From Gnetum montanum (taxonomy: Eukaryota > Plantae > Gnetophyta): DNA of 64,000 bases. Where the stretch lies: assembly GCA_015680685.1 (NCBI GenBank), contig MNCI01001083.1, positions 653,158 through 717,157 on the forward strand, in the 5' to 3' direction. The translations under genes and the position numbers were made by a program. The notes below the pieces were generated by a model. The model made no database searches, was not told the DNA's origin, and worked only from the letters and a program-made list of their open reading frames with translations. Below, in pieces: positions 1,000-55,800 of the stretch (position 1 is its first letter; each line of letters opens with the position of its first letter).

Positions 1000-1880
1000 C
1001 ACTTGATTTGAGTTAGTCAGTTAGCTGATTATTTGATTATTTGTTAAGCTAGATAGTTCTATCACCTTCACTATTTTGTAATAAAATTTGTTGCACTTTT
1101 ATTTAACTTGAGAATGAGTTTTTAATTAATCATAGAGTTATGATGAATAATTTACTAGTCAAGAATGATATTGTATGCCTACCTATGATGTAATTAATAT
1201 GACGTATTTGAGCTCAATTATGCCTATAAATTCTAGTTACCTGTCATACCAAATAAACCTTTTTGTTTATTCTTACTCATACTTTTTGTAGTTTTATTTC
1301 ATGAAGTCATAGTTAGTTTTTGAGTACTCAAAGTAGAATCATAAATAGTTGTACAACATATTTATTTGAGTAAAGTGTATTTCTGTAACATATTTATTTA
1401 GAAACATAAATAGATTGTTTATGATTTTTCTAGCATATTACTTAGAATAGTTTTACTTTTACTTTTTATTTACTTTACAATGTTATTTACTTTTCCTATG
1501 CAATTTACATTTTCATTGTATGTTAGTAATTTGAAGGAATAACTATGATTGGTTTCAAGTATAACATATAATCATCTAGTAATCCAGAAGTAACTTTGTT
1601 TGATTTGCCTAGGAACAAGTTTCTTGGTAATCCTAGTGATGGTTATACTAGCCAAGACATGTATGGTAAGCTAGGATCAAATACTTACCATTGTAGGCTA
1701 GACTAGCATTTATTTTTGTTATCTCTTAGTTAATTAATATAATATTCAATCTATAATGTTTTACCTCTATATCATTTGAGCTAAACAACATCATTGTATC
1801 ATATACCTTACTATAAGTTGAACCATATACTTTGAGAATCACTAAATCTAGTAAGAAGATAGTGATCAATGATCTTTATA
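1000..1880 (+). mobile_element. Degenerate Athila-type LTR fragment; termini not resolved
   Basis: Carries a deaminated copy of the LTR structured module at 1541-1702, including CTTGGTAATCCTAG and the downstream TAGGCTAGA seen in the other Athila-like LTRs. Confidence 0.35.
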
Positions 1881-12142: not shown

Positions 12143-15100
12143 TGATGGGATGCGATATCGCATGGGCTGCGATATCGTGTACACGATATTGCGTCCTCAC
12201 TGCGATATCGCGTATGTGTTGTATCGTACGCGATATCGCAGTCTGCCACCATTTTTATAAATAAGAAGCAGCTCTTTCTTGTTTCAGCATCTAGATCTAG
12301 ACCCTTAGCGAAACTCTGGCAGTTTTACCTCTCCAGAGATAGAATAATTTCCATGTGCCTACAGTAGAAGTTCCAAAGTGAATGGATCTTTATTTGAGCA
12401 AATATTGTACCTAAGCACAAGTTTGTGTACAACAATAAAGACGAACTATTGGATAAACCTTACAGTGCATGGAATAGGCTAAATAGGACTTTAATTATTG
12501 TTATTTATTGTTCATCATTTAAATGCTTTATTAGTTAATTAAATCTCTCTCAACCCTTCTGCCATAGTTAAGTGCATTCAGTATGAAAGCTTTGAGCACA
12601 TGCGTTACGCTTGGTAATCCTAGCAACGAATAGCGTTTGGTAATTTCAGAAGGTTGCATTGACTCAGGGTGTGAACAGTAAGTGGGAATGGATACTGATG
12701 CTAGGTTAATTAAGGCTTAGTTAGTTAAAGTTAGTTACTTAGTCTCTTCACCCTTCACCTCACTAGTAAAGGAGATAAAAACATAAAAGATATAAAAATC
12801 ACATACTTCAGACTTGCTTAACCATACAACCATGACAAATACAAGTAAGTCTGGGAAGACAACGAATGATTAACCTTAAGTGTTCGATAAGGCGTGTAGG
12901 CACTTAGTCTGCGGAGATTGACCGGATCGCACATGTAACGCTCATATTTGTATGGTTGAGTGTAGGGGTACCTCGCCACTCATCATTGGCACCGTTGCCA
13001 GGGACTAAGTTGTTTGTGCACTAAGTAGAACATAGGAAATCACTCACATCATTGGGAAGCTTAGGGTTAATTAAACAAAAAATTACATAACGGTTAATCA
13101 ACACACTGAACTAAACTAAGATGTCTTCTTCTCATAAAAGCACTTCACCACCTAGGGATCACACAAGAGACCATTGGCAGTCTAACACACATACCGAGAA
13201 CTACCAGTTCCTCAATAGTATCGGGTAGTGTATACTCATCATGATGAGTATATACCCAATTTTACTTTTATCCTCCATCAGGATGAACAACTGTGCTAGA
13301 GAGACCTGCAAGGTAACATAATGTTACCTCCGGATTGGGCAGTCCCTAACATGCTTCTTCGTGCTCTTGCACAGATAGGCATGATGAAATTATATGCTGA
13401 ATACATTGCAGAAGATTATGACATAAGGGATTACCATCCCATAGAAGTGCAACGTCAACGGGACTTGCGGCAAGAGAGTCGCCACACATCGTTGAAGGGC
13501 AAAGGACCCTGCAACGCTTCGCCTGTCATAAGAGAAATTAAGGGTGGTGAACCTATCTCAATAGGTTCTCCACAAAATAATGTTCCCCCTCCTAAAAATG
13601 GTGAAGAATTAGGGTATCAGAACCTACCCTCCACGATTCACAACCTTGGTTCTAACTCCCATGAACACCAAGTGTTTAATGAGGGGACACAAACACAAGA
13701 TAAGAGCGAGTGTTCTGATCGTCATCACGATCGGGGTTAGGATCACAGAAGAGAAGGTAGGAGACATCATCATGGTGATGGCTCACCTTCTTCTTCCCCT
13801 TCATCACATCATTCACCCTCTCCTTCCACATCAGGACACTATCATAAGGAGCACAACGGTGAGGATAAGGGTAAGAAAAATGAGAGACCTCGACGAGAGA
13901 GTCGAGAGCGAGGACGAGGACACTCTAGGGAGTCAAGGCATGAAAGAAGGGAAAGTAGGGAACCACGTAGGCATCACAGACGTCATGAGAGAGATGATCA
14001 TGAAGAGCCCCTACTAGAAACCTAGAGTATGTTAGATATTATGGAGGCTGTTAGAATACCTACAAGGCATCAAAAAGATAGCCGGATCAAGAGACTGGAC
14101 ATGAATAATATTCCACGATTTGAGGGAGGATACAATGCTGAGATGCAAAATCACTTACAGGAATTACACGATGCCTGCGCCTTGAAAAATATTGAAAATG
14201 AGTGGCAGAAGTTAAAGTTGTTTCCTAGGACACTCATAAAAGAAGCAGAGAGTTGGTACCATTCCTTAGAGCTGGAAACTATTAGGAGGTGGAGTACAAT
14301 GCTAGAATTGTTTAATGATAAATACCAAATGTACTCTAGAGTGTCCAACTTGCGTAAGTAGATCTAAAGATGGAAGCAGGGTAATCACAAACCCTTGGAT
14401 GCTGCCATGGGCCGATATCATGCATTGTTACATTGTTGCCTAGGCCATGGTTACGCACAACAGGATCAACTTTGCCATCTTGTAGATGGGCTAAGACACA
14501 AAACTAGGAGAACCCTTGGGACATATGCCCAAGGGAGGTTATCTGAACTTAGGTCCCATGAAATTCATCAATTTTTGGAACAAGTAGCTAAAGAAGAAGG
14601 GGAGCTACAGAAAAGAGAAAGTGTGGAAGAATATAACCACAATCCTTGCCTCTGAAAGAAGGGAGTGAGATTCTACGATGAAGAGGATGAGTCACCACTT
14701 GAAGAGTTGGTGAATAGAAAAACTTTTCCACTTCAGAAATTAACAACAAAAGTGTTAGCTAAGGTAGATGAAATATGGAGCTCCTTAGATAGCAAAATTG
14801 AAACTGTCCTAAAAATGGTAGAGGAGTCTAAGGAGGAACGAAGTAGTGACCATGATAAGAAAAAGTGGAGAGATTTAGGCCATGCACATGACAAGGGTAA
14901 GGGAAAAATGACTATCGCTGATGAGGTTGTGAATTCGGATACAGATAATGACGGTGGATGTGAGATCTACCAATATGACCATCATAAGGGATGTTGCCCA
15001 ATAATCTCACATATACAAGAGTCTGGGGTGTATGCACTGAACCCAAGACTTAACAGATGGCAAGCACCCTGAAGGTTACCTTATCCCCAAGGTAACCTGA

Positions 15101-18100
15101 GGCAGTTCCACCAACCATTAATGTATTATCCAAGTGGAACTCCACCACAACCTCGGCCAACATCAACAGTGCCAACACCCATAGTCATGGGGGATGCCAC
15201 CGCCTAGGCAACAATACCCTTACTAGCAACCAGATCCTTATGGCTACTACGTGCAGCAGCTGGTTTCTCCAAGTGACTCTATGGGTCACACAACCCAACA
15301 ATGTCACTACCAAGTTTGGGAGTATTTTAGGACTCCTTCTCCTCTGGGAGACATACCATATGCATACCATCCTCTGAATCCAGCTACCACTCTTACATCG
15401 ATAGTTCCAATACTACCCACTCCAACAATGTAAGGCGAACTCCCCACTCAACCGCAGCAATGTAATGCTACGAGAGCTGTAAAACTTCAACTCACTGTTG
15501 GTTCTAACAACCGCATAAAAAGAAGACCTTTCTTCAGAACCAAAAGCCCAAACAAGCTCTCACAACACAAGCGGTTGAGTTCGTACACGCTCCTCCAAAA
15601 AATAAGGCTTCGGAGCTCCCTTCAAACCAACAACAGAGCTCAATGCACACGGTTATATTAACACATACCGGTACTAACTGGATCAAGGTGGGCCACCTTC
15701 CCAAGAAATTCTCTAATCCTAGAAGCCCCCTAATTTATCTCCAAGTTGTTGGGAATGAACCTCATAAGGCTCTTATTGACTCAGGTTCCAGAGTCAACCT
15801 AATCTCATGAGAAATGTATAAAGCCTAGAACCTACCTCCACTTAAGAAGAGCAATATTCAACTAGAGCTGGCTGACTAGTCCATTACCATTCCCTTGGGA
15901 TTGGTGAAGGACATCATTACCACTATGTGTGGTTGGTCATACCTAGCTGATTTCCTGGTGATAGAAGTCAACAGTAGCAAAGGGGACTTTCCAATTATAA
16001 TGGGGAGGGCATGGTTGAGCACAATAAATGCATGCCTAGGAATCTATAATCTTTCCTTGAAAATATCGAAGAAAAAAATTTATGTAAAGATCAAGAAGAA
16101 GAAAGTTCCATGCATCACATACAGTGATGGCATGAAGGAATGCTCAACATTTCCTGCATGTAACTGGTGTGCACCAGAGGATAACATACAAAGGTGCCTG
16201 TATGTAGCAACCACTCAATAGGAGGACACCTCGTGGTTGACAGCTAATTGAAAGAGCAACTTGCCAACATGTATGGAATGAACCGGGGGAACAACCTGCA
16301 CCCACAATGAAAGCATAGATACATTGGAGTATGAGCGTTGCTGACTTCCACCCCTTAACCTGAAAACATCAATTGGGAGAAGTTGGACGTTTCTAAAAAA
16401 TTCAAATAGGCGTTCATTATTTCGGATCTCTCCCTTTCCATTCAGTCATGGGAGAGATGGCCACCTATGCTGATCATTCAGGGCCCTATGTTCTTTTAAT
16501 TTTTTGTTTTACACATTTTTGTTTTACACGTTTTTGTTTTGCACATTTTTTATTTTACAAATTTCTTTAACTTTTCTTGTTTTTTTTACAACATCGTTCA
16601 TACTTTTTCATTTCTTTATGTGTGTGTGTGTGTTTTATCCTTTTTGTTAAGTTTGTCACCCAATAAGTGCTCTAATGATGGTATGAACTGTTTTCTATTA
16701 GTTGCTAATGTTTGGTTTTTACCCTTAAGTTATGATGTTGATACTAAGGTATGGTTCTTTTGATATGATAGGCAATGAGTCCACTTCACCCATACATCCA
16801 CAAATTTCTATGGTTTCTTTTGGCTTGGCACTGTACAGTCATCTTTTTAAATAAGAACTATAACGAATCAGTGACTAGGTATTTCTCAAACTAAGGAAGG
16901 ACTCACGGAATGAAAAGGGTGTGACTTCAAGGGAACTTGATGCATTTGTGTTGGCCATTCTCTTGGGTGCTTGGATGTTTTCTTCTTGAGTTGTCTTACC
17001 GTTTTGACATTACTCAATTATCGGGAAGTTGAGCAAATAAAAATAATAAAGTCTTTGCATGGTGTGGTTCTCACGCATAAACACATAAAACACACAAAAA
17101 AAAGAAGAGTGAGAATTCAAAGCACACTCCTTAGACAAAATAATCATTTGGGCTACAAGCATCGGTTATGGAACTAAAATAAACATGTTCCCTCTAATAA
17201 GGCCCTTCTCGCTTCCCATTCTCTCCTCCTTTGTTTTGTCGGAATGGTGGTGGCTCTTTGGGGGATGCATTCTTGTTACTTCAAGAGGATGGGTCAGCCG
17301 AATGTATTAATGTGAAGTCACCAGATGTGGTTTGTTGAGGCCAGATTTGGAATGGGATCTGCTAAGTCACATTAACCATGAAATACACAAGGGTCTGTAC
17401 ACCACCTTGTTCTTGGGATTCCATTCCATTCTCTTCTCTCCATCCTTTCTCCATTGTTCACCTCATTGCCGATTGTATCACTAGTGTATATTTTGGTTGA
17501 CGCATTGTTTTCTTTTTGGTAAATTCTTGTGGTTAAGAATTTAACTCTTGTTCCAAATGACATTCCTAGAGCCTACGGACTCTTTGAATGTGGGTTTGTT
17601 AGGGCATTAAAGGCATGAGCCTACTTTGGGGAAGACCCACTGGAATTCCTACTTGGTACACTAGTTAAATTCTTTCCCTTAACATTTTTGCAATCCACTC
17701 TATTTTTTTCATTTCCATCTTGACATCCATTTCATTGACGTTATAGTTGCCTTTTTTCCTCCATCTTTCTTGTTCTTTATTCTTTCTCCATTCTATCGCT
17801 ACCGGAGGTTCGCTCTTAGTCATGGGGGTCTGGACCCAATTTTTTCGATTTTCTCCTAACCCCTACACCTTCTGTAGTCACCATAAATATATCTCCAGAC
17901 CCATATCAGCCATACCACAACTCAGCCAATGGACCTTTCACCGAAGCAAGGTATCCACTGCAGTGTGATTCATTTACCCTTGCTAATATAAAGACTGTGT
18001 TATATGTGCATATGGCAATCATACAACAATAGATTGGATCTAGAGGGAACACTTGGAATGGATCAATGCTAAAGCAGCTATGCAAGGAGTAAGATCGATG

Positions 18101-19114
18101 GCGCACTTATGGATAGACAACGAAAGGTGCAATCTTAGCATTGGCAGTAGTAGACTTCTTCTCTCTTCTCTTTCAGTTGCCAAATAAGGCCTGATGTCAA
18201 ATGTATAAGGTGTTCACTCTTATTGTCATGAACACCAGTTTTGTCATGTTCTGTAATGATGATCCGTTTACATGTCATCCTATTCACCATTAGTTCCATT
18301 CAAGTTGATAATCCCATACCTTCCCAATATTTTGTAAGGAACTCAAGGATGAGTTTTTATTCAGTCATGGGGGTATGATGGGATGCGATATCGCGGTCCG
18401 CCACCATTTCTATAAATAAGAAGCGGCTCTCCCTTGTTTCAGCATCTAGATCTAGACCCTTAGCAAAACTTTGGTAGTTTTACCTCTCTAGAGATAGAAT
18501 AATTTCCATGTGCCCGCAGTAGGAGTTCCAAAGTGAATGGATCTTTATTCGAGCAAATATTGTACCTAAGAACAAGTTTGTGTATGGCAATAAAGACGAA
18601 CTGTTGGATAAACCTTGCAGTGCATGGAATAGGCTAAATAGGACTTTAATTATTGTTATTTATTGTTCATCATTTAAATGCTTTATTAGTCAATTAAATC
18701 TCTCTCAACCCTTCTCCCATAGTTAAGTGCATTCAGTACGACCACTTCGAGCACGTGCATTACGCTTGGTAATCCCAGAAGGTTGCATTGTCTCAGGGTG
18801 TGAACAGTAAGTGGGAACGGATATTGATGCTAGGTTAATTAAGGCTTAGTTAGTTAAAGTTAGTTACTTAGTCTCTTCACCCTTCACTTCACTAGCAAAG
18901 GAGATAAAAACATAAAAGATACAAAAATCACATACCTCAGACTTGCTTAACCATACAACCGTGACAAATACAAGTAAGTCTGGGAAGACAACGAATGATT
19001 AACCTTAAGTGTTTCATAAGGTGTGTAGGCACTTAGTTTGCGGAGTTTGACCAGATTTTGCGTGTAACATTTGTATTCGTATGGTTGAGTGTAGGGGTAC
19101 CTCGCCACTCATCA
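12143..19114 (+). mobile_element. Athila-like Ty3/gypsy element 1, internal deletion derivative (gag-PR only)
   Basis: LTRs 12143-12985 and 18376-19114 (TGATG...CATCA), perfect TSD ATTAA, Athila-type PBS TTGGCACCGTTGCCAGGGAC (12986-13005) and PPT AGTCATGGGGG. Confidence 0.95.
13121..16470 (+). pseudogene. gag-protease of element 1, fused to the last codons of integrase
   Basis: IPRFEGGYN..HLQEL..KLKLFPRTL..AESWY (retrotransposon gag) and ALIDSGSRVNL...YLADFLVI..FPIIMGRAWL (aspartic protease). Stops throughout. Near 16412 the sequence jumps to the homologue of the integrase end of element 2. Confidence 0.85.
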
Positions 19115-20265: not shown

Positions 20266-20540
20266 ATGTCCAGCGCCACTGCGCTCGTCCACTTCTAAGT
20301 CGCCAAGCTGCTGCCCGTGCTCAATGCCTACGCTGCCAATGTTCTGGACTATGTTCCAGGAGCTGATCATGAAATTCCAGGCGCGCGCAGCATGCACATG
20401 TGGTTGAGCAATGATTAGAAGACGCTGGCATGGCCACGGGCGCCATGAACCAGATCGTGCTCATGGGCGGCTCTCGTCGAATCCGATGCCTTCGGCAGAC
20501 GTTGTAGGAGCTCGTGCCTGGAAAGCCCCTGGAGCATCGA
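20266..20540 (+). pseudogene. Hsp70 nucleotide-binding-domain fragment
   Basis: MSSATALVHF*VAKLLPVLNAYAANV / TMFQELIM / VVEQ*LEDAGMATGAMNQIVLMGGSRRIRCLRQTL*ELVPGKPL lines up by eye with Hsp70 LSSTAQTTIEIDSL..ITRARFEELNM..PVEKCLRDAKM....[28 protein letters not shown]. Confidence 0.65.
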
Positions 20541-21392: not shown

Positions 21393-22536
21393 CTAAGGTT
21401 TTCAACTCTAGAAGCTATAACTTTTGATTCAAGAAGCCTTTTTTTTAGCAAACAAAGAGTTGTTTCTTATAGATTTCAACCTCCTAGATGTAATGATGAA
21501 GTTAGATTAACCTCATAGAGCTAAGAAAATTAGTTTTTACACCTTGCCCAATATAGTGCCTCATGACCCTCAAAAGCTCAATTTTAGCACAACTTGACAT
21601 ATGATGTCCATTTCTAACATTTGAATAGCCATTTCTAACATTTTTCAACCTTTTGAACTTAATAGAAAGGTCAAATTTATTGGGTATTTGATAATTTAAT
21701 GATACCTTAAATCATGCCTTAAGAGGCCATAACATAGACTAGCTAATTATGCCTATCAATTTAATTATCAAGACTTACAAATTTAACTTCTTAAATCTTA
21801 AGATTAAGTGTTTAACTTATGTAGATAAATAGTCTTAGCTATCTAAATCTCTAGTTTGTCATTAGTTACACTGCTAGAGTTAGTGTCTTAAGGGGGGTTA
21901 GAAAGGTCATTAAAAATCTAGGTAATGTAGCTAAATGTTACCAACACAATCAATAAATTTGTTGGTGAACCAAAACGGTCAAGAAGATGTATATAACTTT
22001 CATACAACCAAATCATATGACAGAACAACATGAAGACTCATAATGTGAGGGATGTCCTAGAGTGGTGGTTCTCTTGGGCTCTCCCCTACACATAATCTCA
22101 TTTTCACAAGGTGTACGATACCCATGAAGAGAAATGACCCAGGAGATAATTTAAGGATGAGAATGAAAGTGACAGCAGATAATGTGCTAGAAAGATCCTT
22201 AGAGAGTGAGAGACAACATCTGCTATGTCCATCATGGGCCTTGGATTAGCATGAATATTGATACCCATGTATCTTAGCAAAGTTACAAAATTTGGATGTT
22301 GATGTCTTGTGCCTACAAGAAGTATTGCCATGAGAAATCCTATACCAATTCCAACCAAACTTGGGAAAGATGGAATACAAAGGTATTTATAAGCAACAAG
22401 GTTATTGTAGAAGTTTTTCTTTTAAGCTATACATATTAGCCTATTACAAAAGTCACAACATGGATGGTTGCATAATCTTTTATAAAGAAGCCAAGTTTGA
22501 ACTAATATAAATATTTGAATAAAGTTTAGAAGATAT

Positions 22537-23575
22537 TGATGAGACGCGGTTTACACTAGGCCACGATATCGCGTCTTCTCCTGCGATATCGCGTACGCGA
22601 TATCGCGTCGCGCCGCAATTTCTATAAATAAGAGGCGGCACTCCCCTTTTTCCCCAATCCTGGCTAGTGTAGCGAAGCTCTGGCAGATTGATCACTCCAG
22701 AGTTAGAATTTTTCCCCATGTGCCCGCAGTAGGAGTCCTAGAGTGAACGGCTCTTTATTCGAGCAGCTTGTAACCTGAACCCAAGTTGTGTACGGCAATA
22801 AAGACGAACTTGTTTGGATAAACCTTGCAGCACGTGGTTTCATTTATTGCTTTATTTCCTGCTTTCCTAGTGCGTTCAAGTACGACTTGATTACGAGCGT
22901 CTACGGACGTGTACGGCTAGTCAAGGAATCGGCTGCTTGACGCAATGCATGAGTACGACTCAATTACGAGCATTGGATGCTTGGTAACCCAGTAGCGTAT
23001 TCCAGGATTCTGCGCTTGGTAACTCCCGGGTCTAATGTGTACGGCTAGTTGAGGAATCGGCTGCTCATTGCTAGGCTAGATCGTGTGATAAGTACGACTT
23101 AGTTACGAGCACCCACGGGTGTGTACGGCTGGCTAAGGAATCGGCTGCTTATCACACGTAGGCTAAATAGGTGCCTCAGTACGACCACTTCGAGCACTTG
23201 CGTTACGTGTGGCGATCCCAGTAACGATTAGCGTTTGGTAAGCTGCAGTTGCATAGTTCAGGGTGTGTCCGGTAAGTGGGAACGGATGCTGACGCTAGTT
23301 AATTTAGACTTAGATCTTAGTTAGAGTTAGTTTAGTTTTCTCAACCCTTTCTCCTGGTAGCATAGAAGATAAGCCAAAAATACCAAAAAAATCACATACC
23401 TCAGACTTGCTTAACCATACACCGTGACACATACAAGCAAGCCTGGGAAGACAACGAACGATTAACCCCAAGTGTTTCTTGTGGCGTTAATGCATTTAGT
23501 CTGCGGAGTTCGACCGGATCGCGCGTGTACGCTCGTTTCGTATGGTGGAGTGTAGGGGTACCTCGCCACTCATCA
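22537..23575 (+). mobile_element. Young Athila-like solo LTR (1039 bp)
   Basis: TGATGAG...CTCATCA ends, perfect TSD GATAT, homology to the LTRs of elements 1 and 2, CpG still abundant, TATA box CTATAAATA near 22622. Confidence 0.95.
22871..23297 (+). ncRNA. Four tandem structured-RNA modules with covarying helices in LTR R/U5 (putative cis-acting RNA)
   Basis: Units at about 22871-22944, 22947-23071, 23082-23158 and 23168-23297 share AGTACGA-[P2]-CGAGC-[P3]..GTGTACGGC-[P2']-GAATCGGCTGCT, with different but complementary stems. Confidence 0.7.
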
Positions 23576-24720
23576 GATATGATATTTGAAATCCTAGAAC
23601 TTCAAATCATGGGAAAGAAAGAATGGTCAAGGTTCCAAAGAAGCAACATTGCTTTGGTAGTGATACTAAAAATCTAGTTATTAGAAAGATATGTATGTAT
23701 GGTTAACACATTTAATTGCCAAATCAACATGTCTAGATGTCAAATTATGTCAAAAAGCATACTTGATTAAGTAAATAGAGGAAATTTTGAAGAATAAGTT
23801 ATTCCTAAGAAATGCTGATATAGTGTCAATTATTCTTTGTGAAGACTTCAATGCGAAAGTTTGAAGTAGTGTTTATCAATTCTTAAAATATGGATGTGTA
23901 AAAGAATTCTTGGAAGATGAACCTAATTTGAAGAAGATGTTTCCATCAATTCAACATGCAATTCCATTAGCCAGTGCATATTCTACTTACTTTGAATCTT
24001 CAATAGACAAATTAGATCCCAAAATTCGAGAACAAATGATGTTGATGGATAGTACTCATCAAGAACCATAGTTCAGTAATTACTCTACTATGATTAATGA
24101 GGATGGATTAACAACATTCTTCATTAAGACCATAGATTATATTTGGTATGATTATTCCATGTTACCAAGTTACTAGAGCTAATTTTTAAAGAAGAAGTTG
24201 AGAAGAAGAAAGATCAAGCCCTTCTATCCCAAACAAGACGATCTAATCATTTACCACTTATGGTAGAACTACAACTACTTCCATAAATTCATAAGGTTGA
24301 TCAAGATTAGGAAGTATCTTAACCTTACTTTTATTTATGATTTTCATAATTTTCTATATTTTTTAATTTATATTTTAATTAGATAAATAAAATATCTATG
24401 GTAATGTAAGTTGGGAATAAGAATTTACCCTACCTTCACTTGGATAACCAGATATGATTTGCACCTTTTGTGATCTTGGTTAGGATTGGTGATTGGTGGT
24501 TGGTAGATTTTTATTTCAACTCTTATCATTATCTTAGAAGATCATGTAAGTATTGATGAAATAATATTTAATACTTATATAAATTCTTCTCACATATATC
24601 TTGTTTGGAAAATAAGTAAGAAACAATTTCAAGTTCAAAGAAGAAATTAAATTATTAGATCATAGAATCATAAAAGAAGCATTGGAGTTGGAAAAAGAGA
24701 GTGAACAGGCGGGTGTAGAT

Positions 24721-28603: not shown

Positions 28604-31600
28604 TGATGAGCGGTGAGGTACCCCTACGCTCAACCATACGAATATGAGTGTTTCACACATGATCTGGTCAAATTCCAAGGACTAAGTGCCTATGCGCATT
28701 TGTGGAACAACAGTGGGTTGATTAATCGTTGTCTTCCCAAACTTACTTGTATGTCATGATTGTATGGTTAAGTAAGCCTGAGGTATATGATTTTTATGGA
28801 TTTGATCTATTTATATGTCCTATGCTAATAAGGAAGGGAGAGAGAAATAACTAAGTACTAATCTAATTTAACTATTCATTAACTAAGTTCTAAGTACTCC
28901 TAACACCATTATTCGTTCCCACTTGTCGTACACATCCTGAACTGGTGCAACATTGTTGGGATTACCAAACACTAATCGTTACTAGGTTACCAAGTGCTAC
29001 ACGCGTGCTCAAAGTGGTCATATTGAGTGTAATTAACTAATATAGTTGTAAGGTGAGAGAGATAATTAATTAACTAAGAAAGCATTAAATAATAATTAAC
29101 ACTAATTAATCTATTCTGTATGCTACAATGTTTATCATAAAGTTCATCTTTATTGCCATACACAAAGTGTGCTCAGGTACACAATGCTCGAATAAAGATC
29201 TGTTTACTCTATGACTCCTACTATGGGCACGCATAAATAATTCTAACTTTGGAGGGAAAAAATGGCAAGAGTTTAGCTAAGGGACTAACTTCTTACTCTT
29301 GAAACCAAGGGCACTGCCTCTTATTTATAGGTAAGGAGATGGGCCACGATATCGGGTATTTGACATCGCATGGTAGATGCGATATCGTGGTTCATCATGT
29401 GAATGAAAACTCATCCACGAGTCCCTTACAAAATATTGGGAAGGTATGAGATTATTAACTGAATGACCATTGATGGTGGAACGGGTTGACTGACTCAACA
29501 TGCCCAGTGAACGGATCAACAATACAATACATGACAGCATTAGTGTTCATGACCAAAAAAGTGAACACTATACATAAATGACATCTAGCCTTATTTGGTA
29601 GCTAGGAGAGAAGAAGGAGAGAGAGAAAAGAAGAAGACTTGTTGCTGTTGATGCCAAGATTGCGCCTTTTGTTGCCCATCCATAACCACGCCAGCAATCT
29701 TACTCCTTTCGCAAGCATTTCAATTCCAATCCATCTTGAGTGTTTTCTCCAAGTCCAGTCCATTGTTGTATGATTGCCATTTACACATACAACATAGTCA
29801 CAAATGAGCAAGGTAGATAACTCACAATGTAGTTGATACATGGTCTCGATGTAAAGTTCATTGGTTGAATTGTGGTTATGGAAGATACTGATTCTGGAGT
29901 TTTAACACTAGAGACTACCTAAGGTGTAGGGGTTAGGAAAAATTAAAAATTTTTGTGCCTGGGCCCCCATGACTAAGAGAAAACCTCTGGTAGCAATAGG
30001 ATGGAAAAAGATAAGGAATAAGAAATATGGAGAAAAAGTAACAATGACAACACGAGGAAAATGGATGCCATCGATGGGGATGAAACAAAAAATTGTTGAT
30101 TACATGAAATGTTTAAGGGAAAGAAGTTAACAAATGCACCAAAAAGGAATGCTAGTGGGTCCTCCCCAAAGCAGGCTCATGCCTATAGTGCCCTAACAGA
30201 TCCACAAACCAAAGAGTTCGTAGGCTCTAGGAATGTCAATTGGAAGCAAGAGTTAAAAACTTACCCATAAGAAATTACCAAGGAAGAACAATGCATCAAC
30301 TAATATACAAGCTAATGATAAAATTAGAAATGAGGTGAGAAATGGAAAAGAAAGATGGAGAGTAGAGAATGGAATGGAAACCCAAGAAAAAGGTTGTGTA
30401 AAGTCGCTTGTGTGTTTCATGGTTAATGTGACCGAGTAGAACTCATTCCAAATCCAAGCTCAACAATCCACATTCAGTGATCTTGCATTGACATAATTGA
30501 CTAACCCATCCTCTTGAAGAAACAAGAATGCCTCTACAAAAAATCACCACCATTCCGAGGAGAGGGGGATGGAGAACTAGGAAGCGAGAAGGGGCTTTAG
30601 TTAGAGGGAACCTTAAGGAATGGGTAACATGTCTTGGCAGTTCCATAACTAGTGCTTGTAGCCCAAGTTCATTATTGTGTTTAAGGGGTGTGCTTTGAAT
30701 TCTCAATATTTGTTTTTTGTGTTTTTCACATGAGAACCACACCATGCAAAGACTTATTTTTATGTACTCAGCTTCTGGTGATTTGATGAATGGTCAGAAT
30801 GGCAGAAAACCCAAGCAAAAAGCATCCAAGCACTCAAAAGAATAGCTAGTACAAATTCATAGAATCCCCTTGAATTCACATCCTTTTCATCCTTTGAGTC
30901 TTTCCTTAGTTTGAGAAATACCCAATCACCAATTCGTTAACAATTTTATTAGAGAAAAGGACTATACAATTCCAAGCCAAGGGAGACCATAGGATTGTAT
31001 GGATGCATGAAAGTTGTGAACTCATTTCCTGTTTAATCAAAAGAACCATATCTTAATTATCAACATCATACTTCAAAGGTAAAATCTAAAGATTAGCAAT
31101 CAATATGATATTATTCATGCCACCATCATGAACACTTATTGGGTGATGAACGAAACAAAATAAAATCACATGAATAAATGGTAAAAATATGAACGATGGT
31201 GCAAAATAAAAAATAAGAAAAATTAAAGAAATGTGCAAAAAAAAATATGTAAAACAAAAAAAAATATGTAAAGAAAAAATGTGTCAAACAAAAACTTAGA
31301 AAGAACTAAGGGTCTTCAATGATTAGCAAGGGTGGCCATCTCTCCCATGATTGAATTGGAAGGAGGAGATCTGAAATAATGAGTAAGGTTGCCCAACTAC
31401 GAAGGTAGCATATGTTCTAGCTGTCCTAAACTCATGAAAACATTTTGTTTGTTGCACATTGACTAACAGTCTCTTATCTAGGCTCTCAAGTTTGTATATG
31501 GTCATGGCTCTTAAAGGAAAATTTGCATAAATAATGTAAGGTCCTTCCCACAATGTTTGAAATTTGGTCCGTTGTGACACGTGTGTGGGGTTCTAGTAGA

Positions 31601-34600
31601 GAACCTTATCTCTGGGTTGATACTTAACTTTCCTGATTTTTAGGTCATGACGTTGTTTATTAAATGCCTTGTGCAACTCATTAGATGACAGGGCAGCTAA
31701 TCGATTCTCGTCTAGCAAGTTAAGAGTCATCAACCTTTGTTTTTGTGCTAGATCAAGGTCAAGGTTGAGGTCACATGCTGTGGCTAGTGTATAGACCTAA
31801 GTTTAGATAGGAAGTGTTAGAAGTTTTTCATACACTAACATGTAGGGAGAGTAGCCTATCGGGAGTTTCCATGTGGAGTGGTATGTCCAAAGGGCATCAT
31901 TCAGTTTAGTGCTCCAATCTCGCCTATACTTGCTAATGGTTCTGGTCAGTATCTTAGTAATCTCCCTATTAGTGACCTTGGCTTGAGCGTTTGCTTGGGG
32001 GGTGGTATGGTGTTGTCAATTTGTGTTCAACCCCTAAGCATTGCATTAACTTTCAAAAAGTTGCACCTGTAAAGTGTGTACCATTATCTGAGATAAGTGC
32101 ACATGACATACCAAACCTGTTGATGACTTGTTGTTGAACAAATCAGGCAACTGTAGATGATGTGCAATCTTTAACAGTAGCTACTTTAGCCCATTTTGTT
32201 AAGTAGTCTATGGCAACTATGATGTAAGCTTTTCCATTGGACATTGGTGTAATGGGCCCCATGAAATCGATTCCCCAAATGTCGAAGGGTTCTAATGGTT
32301 GAATCCATTGTTCTAGATCCTCCATTCTAGCAATCATTCCCCCATCACATTGACAACATTCAAAATATTGGATGAAGTGATGGGTGTCTTGGAACAAGGT
32401 AGGCCAATAATACCCTGCAAGTAGGATCTTAATAGCCATTCATATCCTAGCATAGTGACCCCCACAAGGGCCCTCACGAGCATCTTGGAGAACTCTCAGT
32501 TGATCTCTATTGGGAACACGCCATTGAACCAAGCCATTAGGACATACTTTGTAAAGTTTTCCATCAATTTCCATAAAGTACTTGGCTCTATGAAGAAACT
32601 ATTGTTTCTTCTTAAGGTCTAATTTTTGTGGTGTTTGTTGGGTAAGGAGATAGGTCAGAATGCTACTGTACTAGTTTGTCTCCATGGGTGATTGATTAGT
32701 CACTACATCGGCAAAGAGGAACTCATTAGGAAAATGATTAGAAATAGGATACTCATTCTCTTTGCTATCCCAGTGTAACCGAGATAAATGATTAACAACT
32801 ACGTTCTCGGTGCCTTTACGATTGATCATCGTTAGATCGAACTCTTGTAGGATTACCATCCATTGTATAATATGGGGGCATACCATTGGCTTATTCATAA
32901 GGAACCAGATGGCACTATGATATGTGTATATGAATACTTTGTATCCCAATACATAGTGCCTAAATTTTTCTAGTGCAAACACTATAGCCATTAATTCTTT
33001 TTCTGTAGTAGTGTAGTTAAGTTGTGCACCAGCTATACTTCTACTTGCACAGTGGATGTAATAAGGGCATTTTTGATCATCTAACTATGTAAGTATGACT
33101 CCTAAGGCATAGTTGGATGCATCAGTCATGACATGGAATAGTTTAGACCAATCAGGAGCTTGTAGAATGGGTGTTTCTACCAGCTTCTGCTTCAAAGTTT
33201 GGAAGGCTAGTTCACATTCCCTAGTCCACTCGAAGGGTACGTCTTTTTTCATTAACTCTACTAATGATTTGGCCTCCTTCGAAAAGTTCTCTATGAATCT
33301 CCTATAGTAGCCAGTGTGTCCAAGGAATGATCGAATGTCTTTGATAGTTTCCAGTTGATAGGTAATTCCTTGGATGACCTTGATTTTCTTGGGATCTACC
33401 TCTATCCCTGCATGTGAAATTTTATGCCCAAGTACTACACCTTCTTGGATCATTAAATGGATTTTCTACTAGTTTAGCCTTAGATTAGTTTCTACACATC
33501 TTTTTAGCACTTGTCTAACTAGTCTAAGGCTTGATCAAAACTTGCTTTGTAGGTGGAGAAGTCATCCATAAATACTTCCACACTATTTCCTATCTGCTGC
33601 TAGAATATGCTTAAAACTAAATGTTGAAACATGGCAGGGGCATTGCACAAGCCAAACAACATTTTCTTGTATGCAAACATTCCTCAAGGACTAGTGAACG
33701 TAGTTTTGGCTTGGTCTTCTGGGGCTATTTGTATTTGGTTGTATTCGCTATAGCCATTCAGAAAACTATAACAGCGATGCCCTGCGATTGTGTCCAACAC
33801 TTGGTCAACAAATGGCAACGGAAAGTGATCCTTGAATGTTGTAATGTTTAGCAGCCTAAAATCTATGCACACCCTCCATTTTCCTCCCTTTTTAGGCATG
33901 ATTACTAAGGGGCTAAACCATTTGCTATCAGCAATGGGGTATATGAACCCAGCCCTTAGAAGCTGTTCGATTTCTTCTTTCACTACTTGCTTCAACTTTG
34001 GGTTCAATTGCCTCTGTGGTTTTTTTCGAGGCTTCATGGAGAAGTCAGTGTAAATCCTATGCTATCATATCCTAGGATCTATTCCAGCTAATTCTGGATA
34101 TGACTAGGTGAAGGCTTTTGACCACTTATTTATTACATTGAGCAGACTTTTTTTTTGTTGTGAAGCAAGTCTCGCGTTGATGATTATTGGTTTTCCATAC
34201 CGGTGGGCAATGGTTTTAGCTCCAGGGGCTCTTATTTAAATTTCTTATGAATTTCCAACTTCCCTCAGTTGATGTTTTCTAAGTTAGTACTAGGAAGTTG
34301 GTGGTGGACTTGCTCTAATGCATCAATGCTATCTATATAAGTGCAAGTCAACCCCTCAATTAGTTCCATGCATATAAGTGAGCTTCTTTCTTGATCAGCT
34401 ATCAAACATTGGGTGTCTTCTTGTTGTATGGCTGCTGCATATAGGCACCTTTGTATGTTGATTGTTTGTGCATACTAATTGCATGCAGGCAATGTTAAAC
34501 TTTGCACAACCCATGATCTCTGCATGCAATTGCACCCTATGTCACTGTATGCGATGCATGGAACCTTCTTCTTCTCGATCTTTCCAAAAGTATTTTCCTT

Positions 34601-37600
34601 AGATATTTGTAGGGAAAGATCGTGGATTCCTAGGTGCGCATTGATAATGCTTAGCCATTCCCTTCCCATTATGATTGGGAAGTCCCCCTTACTGTTATTC
34701 ACTTGAATCACTAGGAAGTCAACTGGATATGACCATCCACAAATAGTGGTAACACTGTCCTCCACTAATCCCAAGGGAATAGTGATGGACTGGTCAGCTA
34801 ACTCTAAATGGACATTGCTTTTTTTTAATGGGGCTAGGTTCCAAACCTTATACATTTCTTGGGATATTAGGCTGACACCAGAACTTGAATCCAAAAGAGC
34901 TTTGCATAGATCATTCCCAGTGATTTGTAGATAGATTAGGGGACTCCCAAGATCAGAGAATTTCCTAGGAAGGTGGCTAGCTTTGATCTAATCAGTAACG
35001 ACATGTGTTAACATGACCATATGTGTTGAATGCAGTGTTAAGTTTGAATTGAGCTCCGAAGCTTTAGTTGATATGGAGGCATCCAAAGACTCAACCACTT
35101 GAGGTTGCAAAGGCTTGGTTGGACTGTTGGTTTTGAAGAAAGATCTTTTCTTTGTATGATTATCATAACCAATAGCAGGTTGAGGATAAATAGCCCTTAT
35201 GGCATTGCGTTGTTGTGGCTGAGCAGGGAGTTCACCTTGCATTGCTGGAGCAGGTGTTAATGGAGCTATTAGTGGGAGAGATGCGGTTGGATTGGAAGGA
35301 TGGTATACTTGTGGAATGCTACCCCTAAGAGAGGAAGTCCTATAGTACTTGTGGGCTTGGTAGTGATGTTGGGGAGTAACGTGACCAAAAGAGTCACGTG
35401 GAGAGATTGGATGCTCACGTAGTATCCATATGGATCAGGTTGCTAGTAAGTATATTGTTGCCTTGGCGGTGGCATTCTCCATGATTGTGGGTGCTGCCAC
35501 TGTTGATGTTGCTTAATTGGTTGTGGTGGAGTTCCACTTGGATAATACATTAAAGGTTGGTGGAACTGCCTTGGGTTACCTTGGGGATAAGGTAACTGTC
35601 GGGATGTTTGCCGTTTGTTTAATTGTGGATTAAGTGCATACATCCCAAACTCCTGTAAATGTGAGATTATAGGGCGACATCCCTTAGGATGGTTGTATTG
35701 ACAGATCTCACATCCACTATCATTGTCTGTATCTAAGTCCACAACCTCTTCAATAATAGAAACCTTACCCTTACCCTTGTTATGCGCATTTTCTACTTCC
35801 CTCTTTTTCCTTTTGTCACAATCACTACCTCGCTTCTTAGACTCCTCTACTACTTTGAGCACAGTTTGAAATCTACTATCCAGGGAGTCCCACATTTGGT
35901 CTACCTTTATTGATACTTTTGATGCTAACTTTTGGATAAGCAAGGTTTTCCTATTCACCATCTCTTCAAGTGGTGACTCTTCCTCATCCTCACAGAATCT
36001 TACTCCCTTCTTTCGAAGGGAAGGATCTCGATTATATTCCTCTACAGTCTCTCTTTTTCGTAGCTCCCCTTCTTCCTTAGCTACTTGCTCTAGTAGCCTA
36101 TGAATTTGATGGGATCTAAGCTTAGATAACCTTCCTTGGGCATAAGTCCCAAGGATCCTTCTTGTTTCATGCGTAAGCCCATCTACAAGATGGAGTAGTT
36201 GATCCCGCTGTGAATAACCATGGCTAGGACAATGATGTAAGAGTGCATAATAGTAGCCCATGGAAGCATCCAAGGGTTCATGAATTCCTTGTTTTCATCC
36301 TTGGATTTGCTTTCATAGGTTAGACACCTAGGAGTACGTTTGGTACTTATCATTGAACAATTCTAGCATAGTACCCCACCTACGAATGGATTTTGGTTCT
36401 AAGGACTGGTACCAGCTTTCAACTTCTTTTATTTGTGTCCATGGGAATAATTTAAATTTTTTCCATTCATTTTCTATGTTTTGCAAGGAACACACATCAT
36501 GAAATGCTTGTAAGTGATTTTGAGGATTAGCGTTATATCCCCCTTCAAATCATGGGATGTTATTCATGTATAACCTCTTGATCTTACTATCTTTTTGGTG
36601 CCTTGTTGAAACTCTCACAGCCTCAGTTATATCTAGCATGCTTCGTGTAGTGAGTAGGGGTTCATCGTGATCATCTCATTCATAGTGTTTATGGTGCCTA
36701 CATGGTTCCCTAATCTCCCTTCTTCTATGGCATGATTCCCTAGAGTGCCCTCGTCCTCTATCTTGGTTGTCTTGTATGTGACTTCCACTTTGTTTGCCCT
36801 TATCCTCACGATCTATTTCTCTATGGCTATGTTCGGATATGGAAGGAGAGGTTGAAGGAGATGATTAAGATGAAGAAGAAGGATAACCGCCACCATGACG
36901 GTGTCTACTACCTTCTCTTCGGTGGTCTCTCCCTCGATCGTGATTGCGGTCAGAATGCCCACCTTTGTCATGTGTCTTTGTTCCTTTTTTGGACTCTTTG
37001 TGTCTCTTGGTATCAGCACCTGGGTTGTGAATAGTAGAATGAAGGGTCTGATACACAACCCCTTGACCAAAGTCAAGGGGAGGAACATTGTTATGTGGGT
37101 GATTTCCTCAAGAAGGTTCATCACCCTCAATTTCACTTACAACGTGTGGGGAATCCTCAGACCATTTTCCCTTCAAGGACTTATGGTGTCTCTCTTGTTT
37201 CAAGTCCCTTTGACATTGTGCTTTGGTGGGATAATAGTCTCTTGAATCATAGTCTTGCACAATGTACTCAGTATGTAAGTGTTGCATGCCTATTTGTGTA
37301 AGAGCACGAAGAAGCATACTTGAGACTGAACGGTCAGGAGGTAACACTATGTTACCTTCCAAGTCACGCCAATGCAACTGTTCATCTTGGTGGAGAATAA
37401 AGGTGAAGTCTGGTACATATTCATCAAGATGAACATATACCACACGAAACTATTGAGGAACTAGCAGATCAACGTCACATGTATTCTACCACTGATTGCT
37501 TCTTGTGTTAGTCCTAGGTGGTGAAGTGCTTTTGTGCGAAGAAGAAGACATCTTGTCTTGTTCAGTGTGCTATGTACTATTACCTTTTCTTAACCAACCC

Positions 37601-38529
37601 TAAGGGTTCATTCCAACAATGTGAATGATTTCCTAAGTTCTACTTAGCGCACAAAAAACTAAGTCCCCGGAAATGGCACCAATGATGAGCGGCGAGGTAC
37701 CCCTACACTCAACCATACGAATACGAGTGTTTCATGCACGATCTGGTCAAATTTCAAGGACTAAGTGCCTATGTTCCTTTGTAGAAAAATAGTGGGTTGA
37801 TTAATCATTGTCTTTCCAAACTTACTTGTATGTCACAGTTGTGTGGTTAAGTAAGCCTGAGGTATATGATTTTTATGGCTTTTATGTGTTTTTATGTCCT
37901 GCGCTANTATGTGTTTTTATGTCCTACGCTAATAAGGAGGGGAGAGACAAATAATTAAGTACTAATCTAATTTAACTATTAATTAACTAAGTTCTAAGTA
38001 CTCTTAACACCAGTATCCATTCCCACTTGGCATACACATCCTAAACTGGTGCAACACTGTTGGGATTACCAAACGCTAATTGTTACTAGGTTACCAAACG
38101 CTACACGCATGCTCGAAGTGGTCATACTGAGTGTAATTAACTAAGAGAGTTGTAAGGTGAGAGAGATCATTAATTAACTAGGAAAGCATTAAATAATAAT
38201 TAACACTAATTAATCTATTTTGTATGCTGCAAGGTTTATCATAAAGTTCGTCTTTATTACCGTACACAAAGTGTGCTCGGGTACACAATGCTCGAATAAA
38301 GATCCGTTCACTCTATGACTCCTACTGTGGGCATGCAGAAATAATTCTAACTCTGGAGGGAGAAAATGGCAAGAGTTTGGCTAAGGGACTAACTTTTTAC
38401 TATTGAAACCAAGGGCGCAGCCTCTTATTTATAGGCAAGGAGACAGGCCGTGATATCGGGTATTCAACATCACATGGTAGATCTGATATCATAGATGCGA
38501 TATTGTTAATGCAATATCATGGTTCATCA
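28604..38529 (-). mobile_element. Athila-like Ty3/gypsy element 2, full domain set but degenerate
   Basis: LTRs 28604-29397 and 37683-38529, TSD AAAAT/ACAAT, PBS TTGGTGCCATTTCCGGGGAC at 37662-37682 (minus strand). Confidence 0.95.
31323..37551 (-). pseudogene. gag-pol of element 2 (gag, PR, RT, RNase H, IN)
   Basis: PR ALLDSSSGVSLI; RT PKKGGKWRVCIDFR..KDHFPLPFVDQ..FMDDFS; RH TDASNYALG..ALEKFRHY..NHLSRL; IN GYYWPTLFQD..WGIDFMGP..WEGPY. Gypsy domain order with no extra archaeal-type RNase H points to Athila rather than Tat. Many stops. Confidence 0.95.
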
Positions 38530-48267: not shown

Positions 48268-48590
48268 ACCTCATATGATGGGCATCTCAGCCCCACATGA
48301 TAGGTAGCATGTGGGACCTAGGCATCTCCACATAATGGATGATGTAGCTCCACACGATGGATAGCATGTGAGATTAGTGTGTGGGACCTAGGTAGCTCCA
48401 CATGATGGAGGATGTAGCTCCACATGATGGGCAACATGTGAGCTTGGTGTGTGGAACCTTGGCAACCCCACATGATGGGTGATGTAACCCAACACAATGG
48501 ATAGCATGTGAGGTCAGCGTGTGGGACCTAGGAAGCTCCACATGATGGGTGATGTAGCCCCACATGATGGGTAGCATGTGAGATTAGTGT
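48268..48590. repeat. 70-bp tandem repeat (~4.5 copies) with internal CCACATGATGG subrepeats
   Basis: GTGG(G/A)ACCT(A/T)GG occurs at 48311, 48381, 48451 and 48521, an exact 70-bp period. Confidence 0.9.
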
Positions 48591-52800: not shown

Positions 52801-55800
52801 GCTTGTTGGTGGAACTATTGCCAATAGTTGCCTTGGGGATAAGGTAACCTCTTGGGTGCTTGCCATTTTGCCACTCTAGGATTTAGAGCATATATCCTAG
52901 ATTCTTGTAGGTGTGACAAGATAGGGCAACATCCCTTGGGATGTTCATATTGAAAAATATCATACCCATCATCATCAGTTTCTGAATCTACAACCTCCTC
53001 TACTACTACAGCTTTTTCCATAGCTTTATGATATTCACTTTCAACCTCCTTCTTCTTTCTTCACTCATGACCACTACCTCCTTGACCTTTACTTTCCAAT
53101 GCAATCTTTACAATAGTTTGAAATTTTTCATCCAAGGAGTCCCACATTTTATCAACCTTAGCTAAAATTTTAGTAACAAATTTTTGGATCAACAAGGTTT
53201 TCCTTTGCATCACTTCATCAAGTGGTGCCTCCTCATTTTCATAGAAACAGAGCTCCCTTTTGTGGATGGAGGGGTCCTTGTTGTATTCCTCTACCCTTTC
53301 TCATTTTTTCAACTCTTCGTCCTCTTTGGACACTTGCTCAATGAGCCTTTGAATTTGATGGATCCTTAGCTCAGAAAGTCTCCCTTGGGCATAGACCCCA
53401 AGGGTTCTCCTTGTTTTAGTTTGAAGCTCATCTATGATATGGCATAGTATATCCCATTAAGAGTATCCATGGCCTAGGCAGCGGTGCAACAAAGAGTAGT
53501 ACCTATGCATAGCCACATCTAAGGACTCATGAGTGCCTTGTTTTTACACTTGGACTTACCTCCTCAAATTGGACACTCTGGAGTATGTTTGGTACTTGTT
53601 ATTAAATAAGTCTAGCATCATACTCCATCGCCAAATAGATTCCAATTCCAAGGGCTAGTATCATCTTTCATCTTCTTTGATGAGTGTCCTTGAAATAGTT
53701 CCAAGGGCTAGTATCATTTTCTACATTCTACAAGGCATAGACATCATGAAAGGCTTGTAAGTGAATTTATGGATCTAAATTGTATTCCCCCTCAAACTTG
53801 GGAATGTTATTCATATCCACCTATTTAATGCGACTATCCTTCATGTACTTGGTTGGAATTTTCATAGCCTCTGAAATGTTTAACATGTTTTTGGTGGTCA
53901 ATAGGGGCTCATCATAGTCATAGCAATCTCTATGGCCCCTATCTTGGCTATGATGCCTATGATGAGTTCTACTGTCCCTTTGTTCTCTGTATTCTTCATC
54001 CCTTGGTTGTCCATGCCCACAATCTTTGCGGTCTCAACAAGATCTAGGATCATCCCTATCCCGTATTTATCTTCATCATGATTTCTGTTGCCTCTACTTC
54101 TCCTATTAGAGTTGGAGGAGTAAAATAATGAGGATGTTGATGAAGGCAAAGAGGGAGGAGAACCAACACTAGAATGATGCCTACTACCCCCTCTTCATTG
54201 ATCCCTATCCTGATCACCATGTTTGTCTCTCTATTGGTTCTTGTCGTTGTTCTTACCTTGATTACCACCTTTTGAGGCCCCCTGATCTTGAGACCTGTTC
54301 TTCCCATAATCAAGATTATCCACAATTAACTACAACCATTGGTTAAGGGTATCCTTGTCAAGAAGAGGAGGAGAATCTCTGTATTGGGAGGCACCCAAAA
54401 AGAAGTCATCATGTTCTTTGTGTGTTTGGATGGACAAGTAAGCAGAAAATTTTTTATCTTTTGAAGTCTCATATCTAGCTTCCATTTGCCGATCTTTCTT
54501 TCATTGTGCTTTTGTGGGATGATAATCCCAATAAGCATGGTCATGAACCTTGTACTCTACATTGAGTCTGGCAATGCCCAACTTGATAAGACTATTAAAC
54601 AACACTGCTAGAACATATCAGTCGAGCGGTAACACACTGTTGCCTTCCATGTCCCTCCGTTATAGCTACGCATCCTGATGTAGGATGAAGGTGAAATCCA
54701 AACTGTAGGCATTTGGATGAGTATAGATCACTTTGAATTGTTGGGACACTTGTATCTTTTGGCCTTCTTGCCTTTGATTGGATTTTTTTAGGAATGGTGA
54801 TGGAGAGTCTTCCCTGCAAAAGGAAGTCATATCAATGATTGTGTAGAAATAATGTGCATTGGTTATTATTCTTTACCTTAATGTTTTTAATTTTTGATTC
54901 CTTTACAACATTGTTAAAGGTTTTTACTATCATTTCTATGTAGCACACTTAAATAACTAAAGTCCTTGGCAATGATGACAATGATGAGTAGCCAGTAATC
55001 CTGTTGCCCAACCATACAAATCACAAGCATTGCACTAGTGATCCAATAGAGTTCCATGGATTTTAGCTCTTCTAAATTCATAACAACCAAGGTAGTGACT
55101 TAAGGATGTGATCATTGTCTTCTTGGCTTCACTTGTGTAAGTGCAAGTGTATGGTTAAGTGTAAGCCAAGGCACATGATTTTTATTGATTTTATATTTTA
55201 TTTGATTTAATCCAAGTAGGAACAAAATAATCAATTATGAATTAATCTAATAAACTACTTAATGTCTTAATCTACTTCCTAACATAAGCATCCAGGCCCA
55301 CGTTTCGTGCACATCTTGAACTTGTTAAGAATGATGCTAGGTTATTAAGTGTTAGGCTACTAGGTGAACCAAGTGATAACACTGCTAGGATTACCAAGTG
55401 TTAACAGTATGTTCAAGGTAGTTGTACTTGTGTGTATTAATTAACCAAAGACATGAATGTAAAGTGCACAAAAGTAAACATTAATCTATTCTTAAGTGCT
55501 ACAAGGGGTTCCAAGAATCTTGTCTTTATTGTCAGCACATCAAAGTGTTTAGGTACATTGATGCTCAAATAAGAATTCGTACAATCCTTGAAGTCCTATT
55601 GTGGACACTTGAAAATATTCTAACTTTCACAAAAATAAACTGTAAGAACTTAGCTACTCTATTGACTTAACAATGCCATAAATGTGATGGGTACATGCAT
55701 TTATATAGGTAGAGATAGACATTGCATCGATGCATATGCATCAATGCATTGACCCATGCATCAACAAGGACTTGTCAACACATGCCCATCGATGCAGCCC

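Follow-up and report, generated by a model that had tools for sequence, protein, structure and literature searches.

The 64,000-nt window of Gnetum montanum DNA analyzed here (contig MNCI01001083.1) contains a solo LTR of a high-copy Ty3/gypsy (Athila-like) retrotransposon family at 22537..23575 (+), and an array of structured units sits within it. The LTR has TGATGAG...CTCATCA ends and is flanked by a 5-bp target-site duplication, GATAT (22532..22536 on the left and 23576..23580 on the right, both +). It is homologous to two LTR pairs, 12143-12985/18385-19114 and 28604-29390/37683-38529, which bound two further family members. Element A (12143-19114, +; target duplication ATTAA; LTRs ~90% identical) is a gag-protease element without the 2.85 kb that holds RT, RNase H and integrase in element B. 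Element B (28604-38529, -) is a decayed gag-pol element with pieces of gag, protease, RT, RNase H and integrase in Ty3/gypsy order. Element C is seen as an LTR near 55100-55800 (-), the most divergent of the set (52-58% identity to the others), and identity among the four LTR subfamilies is 52-73%. The 2-kb region preceding the 3' LTR is 75% identical between elements A and B; no frame there is outstanding, and no Rev- or Rex-like frame was identified.

Assignment to Ty3/gypsy is based on the TG...CA ends, the 5-bp duplication, the primer site and the order gag-PR-RT-RNase H-integrase; in Pfam searches of the broken pieces RNase H matched above the curated cut-offs, and RT, integrase and gag matched below them. 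The LTR ends and primer site match what we take to be Athila features, and the domain order too is in keeping with the label "Athila-like". Among named RT relatives the best comes from Cryptomeria japonica (68%). Public DNA runs that carry four different organism labels contain at least 90% of solo-LTR words, and contigs map to the solo LTR by the tens of thousands in each run, which indicates a very high-copy family. A TATA-like box (TATAAAT, 22623..22629, +) is aligned in 6/6 LTR copies. Transcription of the solo LTR is predicted to start near 22650, and the stretch that bears the array would form the start of the element RNA.

An initial annotation had placed a four-unit array of covarying three-helix modules in this LTR, 250-670 nt past the TATA box. 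Its coordinates and helices were confirmed: all 18 named helices of units 0-4 are Watson-Crick or G-U paired on the + strand, G-U is indeed the sole non-Watson-Crick pair in them, the array begins 248 nt and ends 674 nt downstream of the TATAAAT at 22623, and TAGGCTA follows units 2 and 3. The junctions, described as near-invariant, are identical in units 1-3, but unit 4 has GTCCGGT and GAACGGA. Unit 1 (22871..22944, +) and unit 3 (23082..23158, +) are rods with two loop modules each and with caps C(UACG)G and C(CACG)G, respectively, which we take to be extra-stable RNA tetraloops. In unit 2 (22947..23071, +) the rod with its two loop modules carries a long apical insert. Unit 4 (23176..23292, +) likewise has two loop modules and a long apical insert, and its type is common to all sister LTRs. 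Upstream of these lies unit 0 (22720..22833, +), a rod whose two loop modules stand head to head (CGA 22760 with 22790-96; CGA 22805 with 22745-51, swapped) around an 8-bp helix. The sole AATAAA of the solo LTR (22797..22802, +), a candidate poly(A) signal, is paired in this helix. The units are unbranched at the loops in the predicted folds.

The conserved entity is smaller than the three-helix unit initially described. It is an asymmetric internal loop, CGA opposite G-N2/3-CGG-N, and both loops of each unit are the same motif. A descriptor comprising the loop and four pairs on each side found ten sites on the + strand of the solo LTR and none on the - strand; 1000 dinucleotide shuffles gave 0.016 sites on average and never more than 1. 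As units 1-4 had served to write the descriptor, the fair test is provided by the two unit-0 sites alone. Those two loops (22745-22807) had been missed by the initial annotation, and the outer of them has its strands swapped, the long one being 5'. The final A of the short strand is invariant across loops, the long strand begins G-N-A in 26/30 loops (GTA in 11, GAA in 14), and the closing pairs of the 30 loops are G-U in 15, C-G in 8 and A-U in 6. A third conserved loop, GGA opposite AAACC, was observed at the base of unit 0 (22733-22737 with 22820-22826) and in the five other LTRs; it could be the same module with GG/CC replacing CG/CG. Separately, the apical inserts of units 2 and 4 contain a small hairpin around GGTAA(T)CC in every subfamily (22980, 23208, 12610, 18765, 28994, 38098, 55398 and 1623), and an extra match at 20307 is probably due to chance.

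Energy calculations agreed with the claimed folds of units 1 and 3, which are strong hairpins (z -2.95 and -4.30), and more weakly with that of unit 2 when folded by itself (z -1.18), but not with that of unit 4, whose claimed fold is not the minimum-energy fold (z +1.11; -33.5 kcal/mol when constrained vs -35.4, or 1.9 above) and has a pairing probability of about 0 in the whole leader. Because that fold is not favored energetically, the case for unit 4 is entirely comparative. The array as a whole is no more stable than its shuffles (z -0.41). In folding of the whole predicted leader units 1 and 3 alone were certain, and units 0, 2 and 4 were not favored when no span limit was set. The pairing probability of unit 0 was 0.83-0.98 with a 150-nt span limit and 0.06 without it, and that of unit 2 was about 0.4 with local folding. 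The antisense strand of units 1-4 folds worse than the sense strand; in unit 0 they differ little in 4/6 copies.

Units 0 and 4 are present in 6/6 LTR copies, and units 1-3 in the solo LTR alone. Beyond the solo LTR, units 0 and 4 lie in the element A 5' LTR (12355..12707, +) and 3' LTR (18510..18836, +), the element B 3' LTR (28897..29230, -) and 5' LTR (38001..38334, -), and the element C LTR (55276..55608, -). The four loops of units 0 and 4 are thus common to all subfamilies in the window, to which the solo-LTR subfamily adds six from duplicated units. A covariance model built from nine array-type units matched all six further copies that the initial annotation had listed (five of them in the training set); each proved to be a single copy of the unit-4 type, with no array. 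The copy outside the training set, heavily decayed, is at 1532..1696 (+) and was matched at E 9.1e-06. Up to E 5 the model gave 20 matches, which include 4/6 unit-0 rods at weak values (E 0.14-3.1). Contig joints in public runs that skip or repeat units indicate that unit number varies among family copies. Since units 1-3 are absent from the sister LTRs and are skipped or repeated among family members, their copy number is explained by recent duplication. The initial annotation had argued for selection on an RNA fold and against simple duplication, and the first part is supported below, but the copy number of units 1-3 is a matter of duplication.

Scans of viral contigs gave 0 matches with the loop pattern and 0 confirmed RT sequences. 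A looser form of the pattern occurred in viral contigs at no fewer than 120 loci among the matches listed, and the covariance model had no match in 100 of the 163 fetched loci (L001-L100). The 43 matches of one metagenome scan were judged to be chance, none being similar to the solo LTR. The loop module was therefore not found outside the host group in these scans, which is weak evidence of its absence there.

Covariation exceeded the shuffled and slid alignments used as controls, in a sample of about four independent subfamilies. In counts that are not a formal test, as the structures were derived from the tested alignments and the rows are related, 96.2% of 183 cells were paired in the array-type units and 9/21 pairs had changed on both sides, with 0/500 shuffles reaching the covariation score and slid controls 25-39% paired; in unit 0, 91.6% of 227 cells were paired and 7/38 pairs had changed on both sides, with 27/500 shuffles reaching the pair count and 0/500 the score. 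The shuffle control overstates significance because the nine aligned units are not independent, comprising two LTR pairs and three recent duplicates. The claim of a covarying RNA fold is supported, except that what recurs is a single loop, found also upstream and with its strands swapped, and not a three-helix unit. Across the 30 loops of six LTRs, 230/240 flanking cells pair, with 34 G-U against 2 A-C. Core letters were kept in 174/203 cases (one deletion-bearing loop was left out), and of the 29 changes 28 are C>T or G>A, as expected of methylated copies that decay once inserted, with 1 other.

Loops and stems were also compared for conservation. Transversions affect 1/14 core columns, 8/32 stem columns and 36/81 others. 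Family-wide variants at a frequency of at least 10% were counted among the variants listed, with 12 of the 52 variant rows falling outside that set. On this basis they occur at 2/103 loop, 14/228 stem and 22/240 other positions: the difference between loops and all non-loop positions (2/103 vs 36/468) has a Fisher p of 0.03, but that between loops and stems alone is not significant (p 0.16). Variants at CpG positions, among those listed, number 2/40 in loops vs 8/36 elsewhere (p 0.04). A third loop variant in the public runs, 23269 C>A at about 47%, is towards G-U-A. The unit 1 partners 22899 G>A and 22908 C>T occur at like frequency in four DNA runs (0.48-0.63). Among the 15 stem variant rows within the listed set, the change by itself leaves the pair intact in 8, is matched by a partner change in 1 and breaks the pair in 6, mostly at helix ends. 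As read from these alignments, the loop letters are kept while the flanking helices change yet stay paired on the sense strand, which supports selection on a fold of the sense-strand RNA whose internal loops are conserved.

Two readings do without any such selection on RNA, and both are highly improbable. The first is a neutral history of recent tandem duplication together with template-switch correction of hairpins in reverse transcription. Hairpins can be perfected without function, and units 1-3 are recent duplicates missing in sister LTRs; template-switch correction, however, would erase the loops, yet these persist across LTRs 52-73% identical, and a decaying DNA palindrome would yield A-C and G-T equally often, in place of the 2 vs 34 found. 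The second reading, which merits no more credence than the first, is that GTAC sites for SBP-box (SPL) transcription factors cluster at the DNA level, with the hairpins incidental to them. GTAC is the SBP-box core, and the solo LTR has 11 such sites vs 4.0 expected from composition. Nonetheless, long strands begin GTA in only 11/30 loops and GAA in 14/30, the sites lie past the TATA box, and the pairing and covariation of the flanks, the bias to G-U and the swapped-strand copy would be left unexplained. The boxes of Sireviruses are similarly a high-copy, CGG-bearing motif of a plant LTR, but they are described as short palindromic DNA upstream of the TATA box in Ty1/copia elements, whereas the motif here is an asymmetric two-strand loop downstream of it (PMC2829016, in the text available).

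A match to a known Rfam family, which the initial annotation had allowed for, was not found in the array: there were 0 matches at the gathering threshold in the whole 64-kb window, and at E up to 10 the solo LTR gave four, none of them in 22720-23300. It had not recognized the array as a hammerhead, HDV, twister or hairpin ribozyme, and the family models for hairpin, HDV, twister, twister-sister, pistol and hatchet ribozymes had no match in the array. Neither CUGANGA nor GAAA, the marks of the hammerhead/retrozyme core, occurs on the solo-LTR sense strand, and the hairpin ribozyme loop-B string is absent as well. Two other motifs were considered and rejected. A kink-turn has a 3-nt bulge followed by tandem G-A and A-G pairs, and here the 3-nt G-N-A of the long strand is followed by CG, not GA. 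The sarcin-ricin or loop E motif has AGUA opposite GAA; here AGUA precedes the outer loops of units 1-4 alone, where it pairs with UGCU, and the other loops are without it. A search of the literature on repeated loop modules in plant LTR elements, with most subscription journals and supplements outside its range, returned no description of the CGA/G-N2/3-CGG-N loop. The loop is apparently an RNA module of a known kind that is undescribed, and it may be put forward as a candidate new recurrent RNA 3D module.

The initial annotation had offered a catalytic RNA as one possibility, and this received no support. A new self-cleaving or self-ligating ribozyme, its two internal loops docking as in the hairpin ribozyme, is very unlikely, although each rod does hold two conserved internal loops and plant LTRs are known to carry ribozymes in retrozymes (PMC4918200, in part). 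No ribozyme family matched the array at E 10, and the two loops of a unit are near-identical and occur strand-swapped as well, unlike a two-part active site. Ten cuts would presumably also destroy the leader needed for reverse transcription. Just as little probability attaches to a wider version, in which the loop would be a new catalytic or self-processing module of a protein-coding plant retrotransposon family. Its units would dock on one another and cut or protect the LTR transcript, so that LTR copies in their thousands would release a stable structured RNA. Retrozymes share with the present case a conserved RNA motif within LTRs of the plant Ty3/gypsy world, but they are non-coding and carry a single hammerhead, whose three-way junction has a 15-nt core, neither of which is true here (PMC4918200, and PMC6765202 for the kind, both as far as their accessible text goes). 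Fixed letters, interchangeable helices, either strand order and variable number together suggest that the loop behaves as a recognition site and not as a two-part active site.

Two RNA-labelled runs from one study (X19, X20) yielded contigs that extend from about 22804-22814 to 23119-23203 and cover units 1-3; they record presence in the libraries and not transcription, as the libraries may contain DNA. Among the joints listed for these runs none pointed to a circle or a splice. Units 1 and 4 are each preceded by a pyrimidine tract that ends in AG; these tracts were considered as splice acceptors and rejected, since the RNA-run contigs cross the first. Contigs from DNA runs and from two presumed-RNA runs (X16, X17) cover the whole stretch.

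If the loop is a recognition site, its partner could be RNA. The loops might then be GNRA-like A-minor donors that dock RNA to RNA and compact the 900-nt leader for ribosome shunting, internal entry or a silencing shield, with no specific protein reader, which we consider rather unlikely. The G-N-A opposite an invariant A in 26/30 loops is in keeping with it. So are the eight upstream AUGs of the leader, with frames of 4-23 codons, which make plain scanning unlikely, and the leaders of pararetroviruses, which are reported to shunt ribosomes and evade silencing (PMC5902531, in the part available). Against this, the GNRA likeness was read by eye and no receptor was identified, and 5/8 of the upstream AUGs are inside the array, four of them in unit 2, which the sister LTRs lack.

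A host nuclear factor is a somewhat better candidate for the reader of the loops, although still an unlikely one. It would bind them as an export element for unspliced RNA, like the CTE or the CaMV leader, and unit 0 would in addition hide the poly(A) signal of the 5' LTR. The sole AATAAA is paired in unit 0 in 6/6 LTRs, with a 44-51% T stretch after it, but it may be kept merely as a helix strand. The rod of unit 0 has two like loops head to head, and the CTE has two internal loops on one long stem-loop (PMC7551171). The likeness to the MPMV/SRV CTE, in which a rod within retroelement RNA has two internal loops as its conserved part, is one of architecture alone: the CTE binds NXF1, whereas here there are ten loops in an LTR leader and no Rfam match (PMC7551171, PMC3856414, both in available extracts). 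The CaMV leader is described as enhancing export and binding ALY1, ALY3 and MOS11, but the same source, in the part available, states that plants are without a known NXF1-like export receptor (PMC8421220). Other structured cis-elements of retroelement RNA are the HTLV-1 RxRE, which is likewise inside an LTR and linked to polyadenylation (PMC7551171), and the IAP RTE and MusD MTE (PMC12786077); as covered in the accessible text, these are animal elements with known ligands, and no sequence shared with them was found. According to a 2025 review, in its available text, RNA export of plant LTR retrotransposons has never been studied directly (PMC12786077).

The initial annotation had also raised a protein-binding element, and such a role is plausible. 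Of these readings, we tentatively favor docking of the element's own Gag, which is possible but somewhat short of probable; the array would be a multi-copy site in the 5' leader that selects full-length RNA for packaging. In decreasing order the others are a host export or 3'-end factor, RNA-RNA compaction, a ribozyme and, last, SBP-box DNA sites and a neutral hairpin history. Gag docking is placed first because the units occupy the stretch from the TATA box to the primer site, in which the packaging signals of retroelements are located, and because HIV-1 and CaMV offer precedents; Gag itself was chosen as the ligand by position and analogy. In elements A and B the units are indeed in the 5' leader upstream of gag, within the interval from TATA box to primer site. 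Under Gag docking, RNA rods would fold in the 5' leader and display one asymmetric internal loop ten times, with the helices serving only to space and orient it. The loop would take up a defined 3D shape: a 2-nt bulge to one side of two C-G pairs and, to the other, a G-N-A facing A, which resembles a GNRA loop assembled from two strands. Units 1-4 would lie downstream of the poly(A) site and be present only at the RNA 5' end. Gag would dock at the loops, so that full-length RNA would be picked for packaging, and more loop copies would bind more protein, which could favor a subfamily where Gag is limiting. The HIV-1 poly(A) hairpin encloses AAUAAA, as the unit 0 helix does here.

The HIV-1 leader is reported to bind more than two dozen nucleocapsid proteins. 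Its psi region thus compares with the array in being a 5' leader with many Gag sites, predicted ones in our case, but the HIV sites are unlike one another, and here one loop is repeated with varying copy number (PMC7395439, in part). The CaMV leader holds a coat-protein packaging signal and a poly(A) signal on one long stem-loop (PMC8421220). As presented in the available portions of PMC8421220 and PMC5902531, the CaMV 35S leader also belongs to a reverse-transcribing plant element, precedes the primer site as a long structured leader, has its poly(A) signal on a helix arm, contains short upstream frames, and co-locates packaging and export signals in that region. It differs in that CaMV is a pararetrovirus with one long stem-loop, for which those portions describe no repeated internal-loop module.

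The Gag protein gives mixed indications. Element A keeps both rods and gag despite its loss of RT, RNase H and integrase, which counts for Gag docking. Its Gag has an Arg/His/Ser/Glu-rich tract upstream of the capsid domain (13741..14022, +), with similar tracts in B and C, but the tract is of mixed charge (20 R and 19 D+E in 94 residues) and is not a clean arginine-rich motif, which counts against it. An N-terminal domain of about 80 residues, then an Arg/His/Ser/Glu-rich tract, is encoded at 37159-37449 (-) and 13300-13494 (+). This domain had no atlas match, one relative among 1.84 billion and no solved relative below E 0.26, and its structure model has a pLDDT of 57 and a pTM of 0.36. One relative was found for the capsid region. 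Whatever reads it, the loop offers a defined target of 10-11 letters, of which each LTR in this very high-copy family has 4 or 10. Should Gag capture or export be tuned by copy number, this would provide a concrete cis mechanism for subfamily competition and for the swelling of large plant genomes.

Several further features were observed in the window. The 3' end of the solo LTR (23394-23575), with a hairpin at 23394-23453, is kept across subfamilies and probably holds primer-site and integration structures. Upstream of the TATA box (22562-22612, 12145-12241) are palindromic GCGATATCGC repeats that vary in number between copies and resemble the repeated boxes of Sireviruses in position. A further, very decayed LTR is probably present at about 1200-1700, where a TATA-like box and, by eye, a stretch that resembles unit 0 but has no exact AATAAA accompany the unit at 1532-1696. 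A Copia-type fragment with a GAG-pre-integrase domain lies at 9452-9868 (+). Host-like gene pieces at 59762-62890 (-) had no Pfam or protein match; they include an F-box-like stretch (by eye) and QE repeats. Tandem repeats were found at 48310-48590 (70 bp, four copies) and 5025-5230 (104 bp, two copies).
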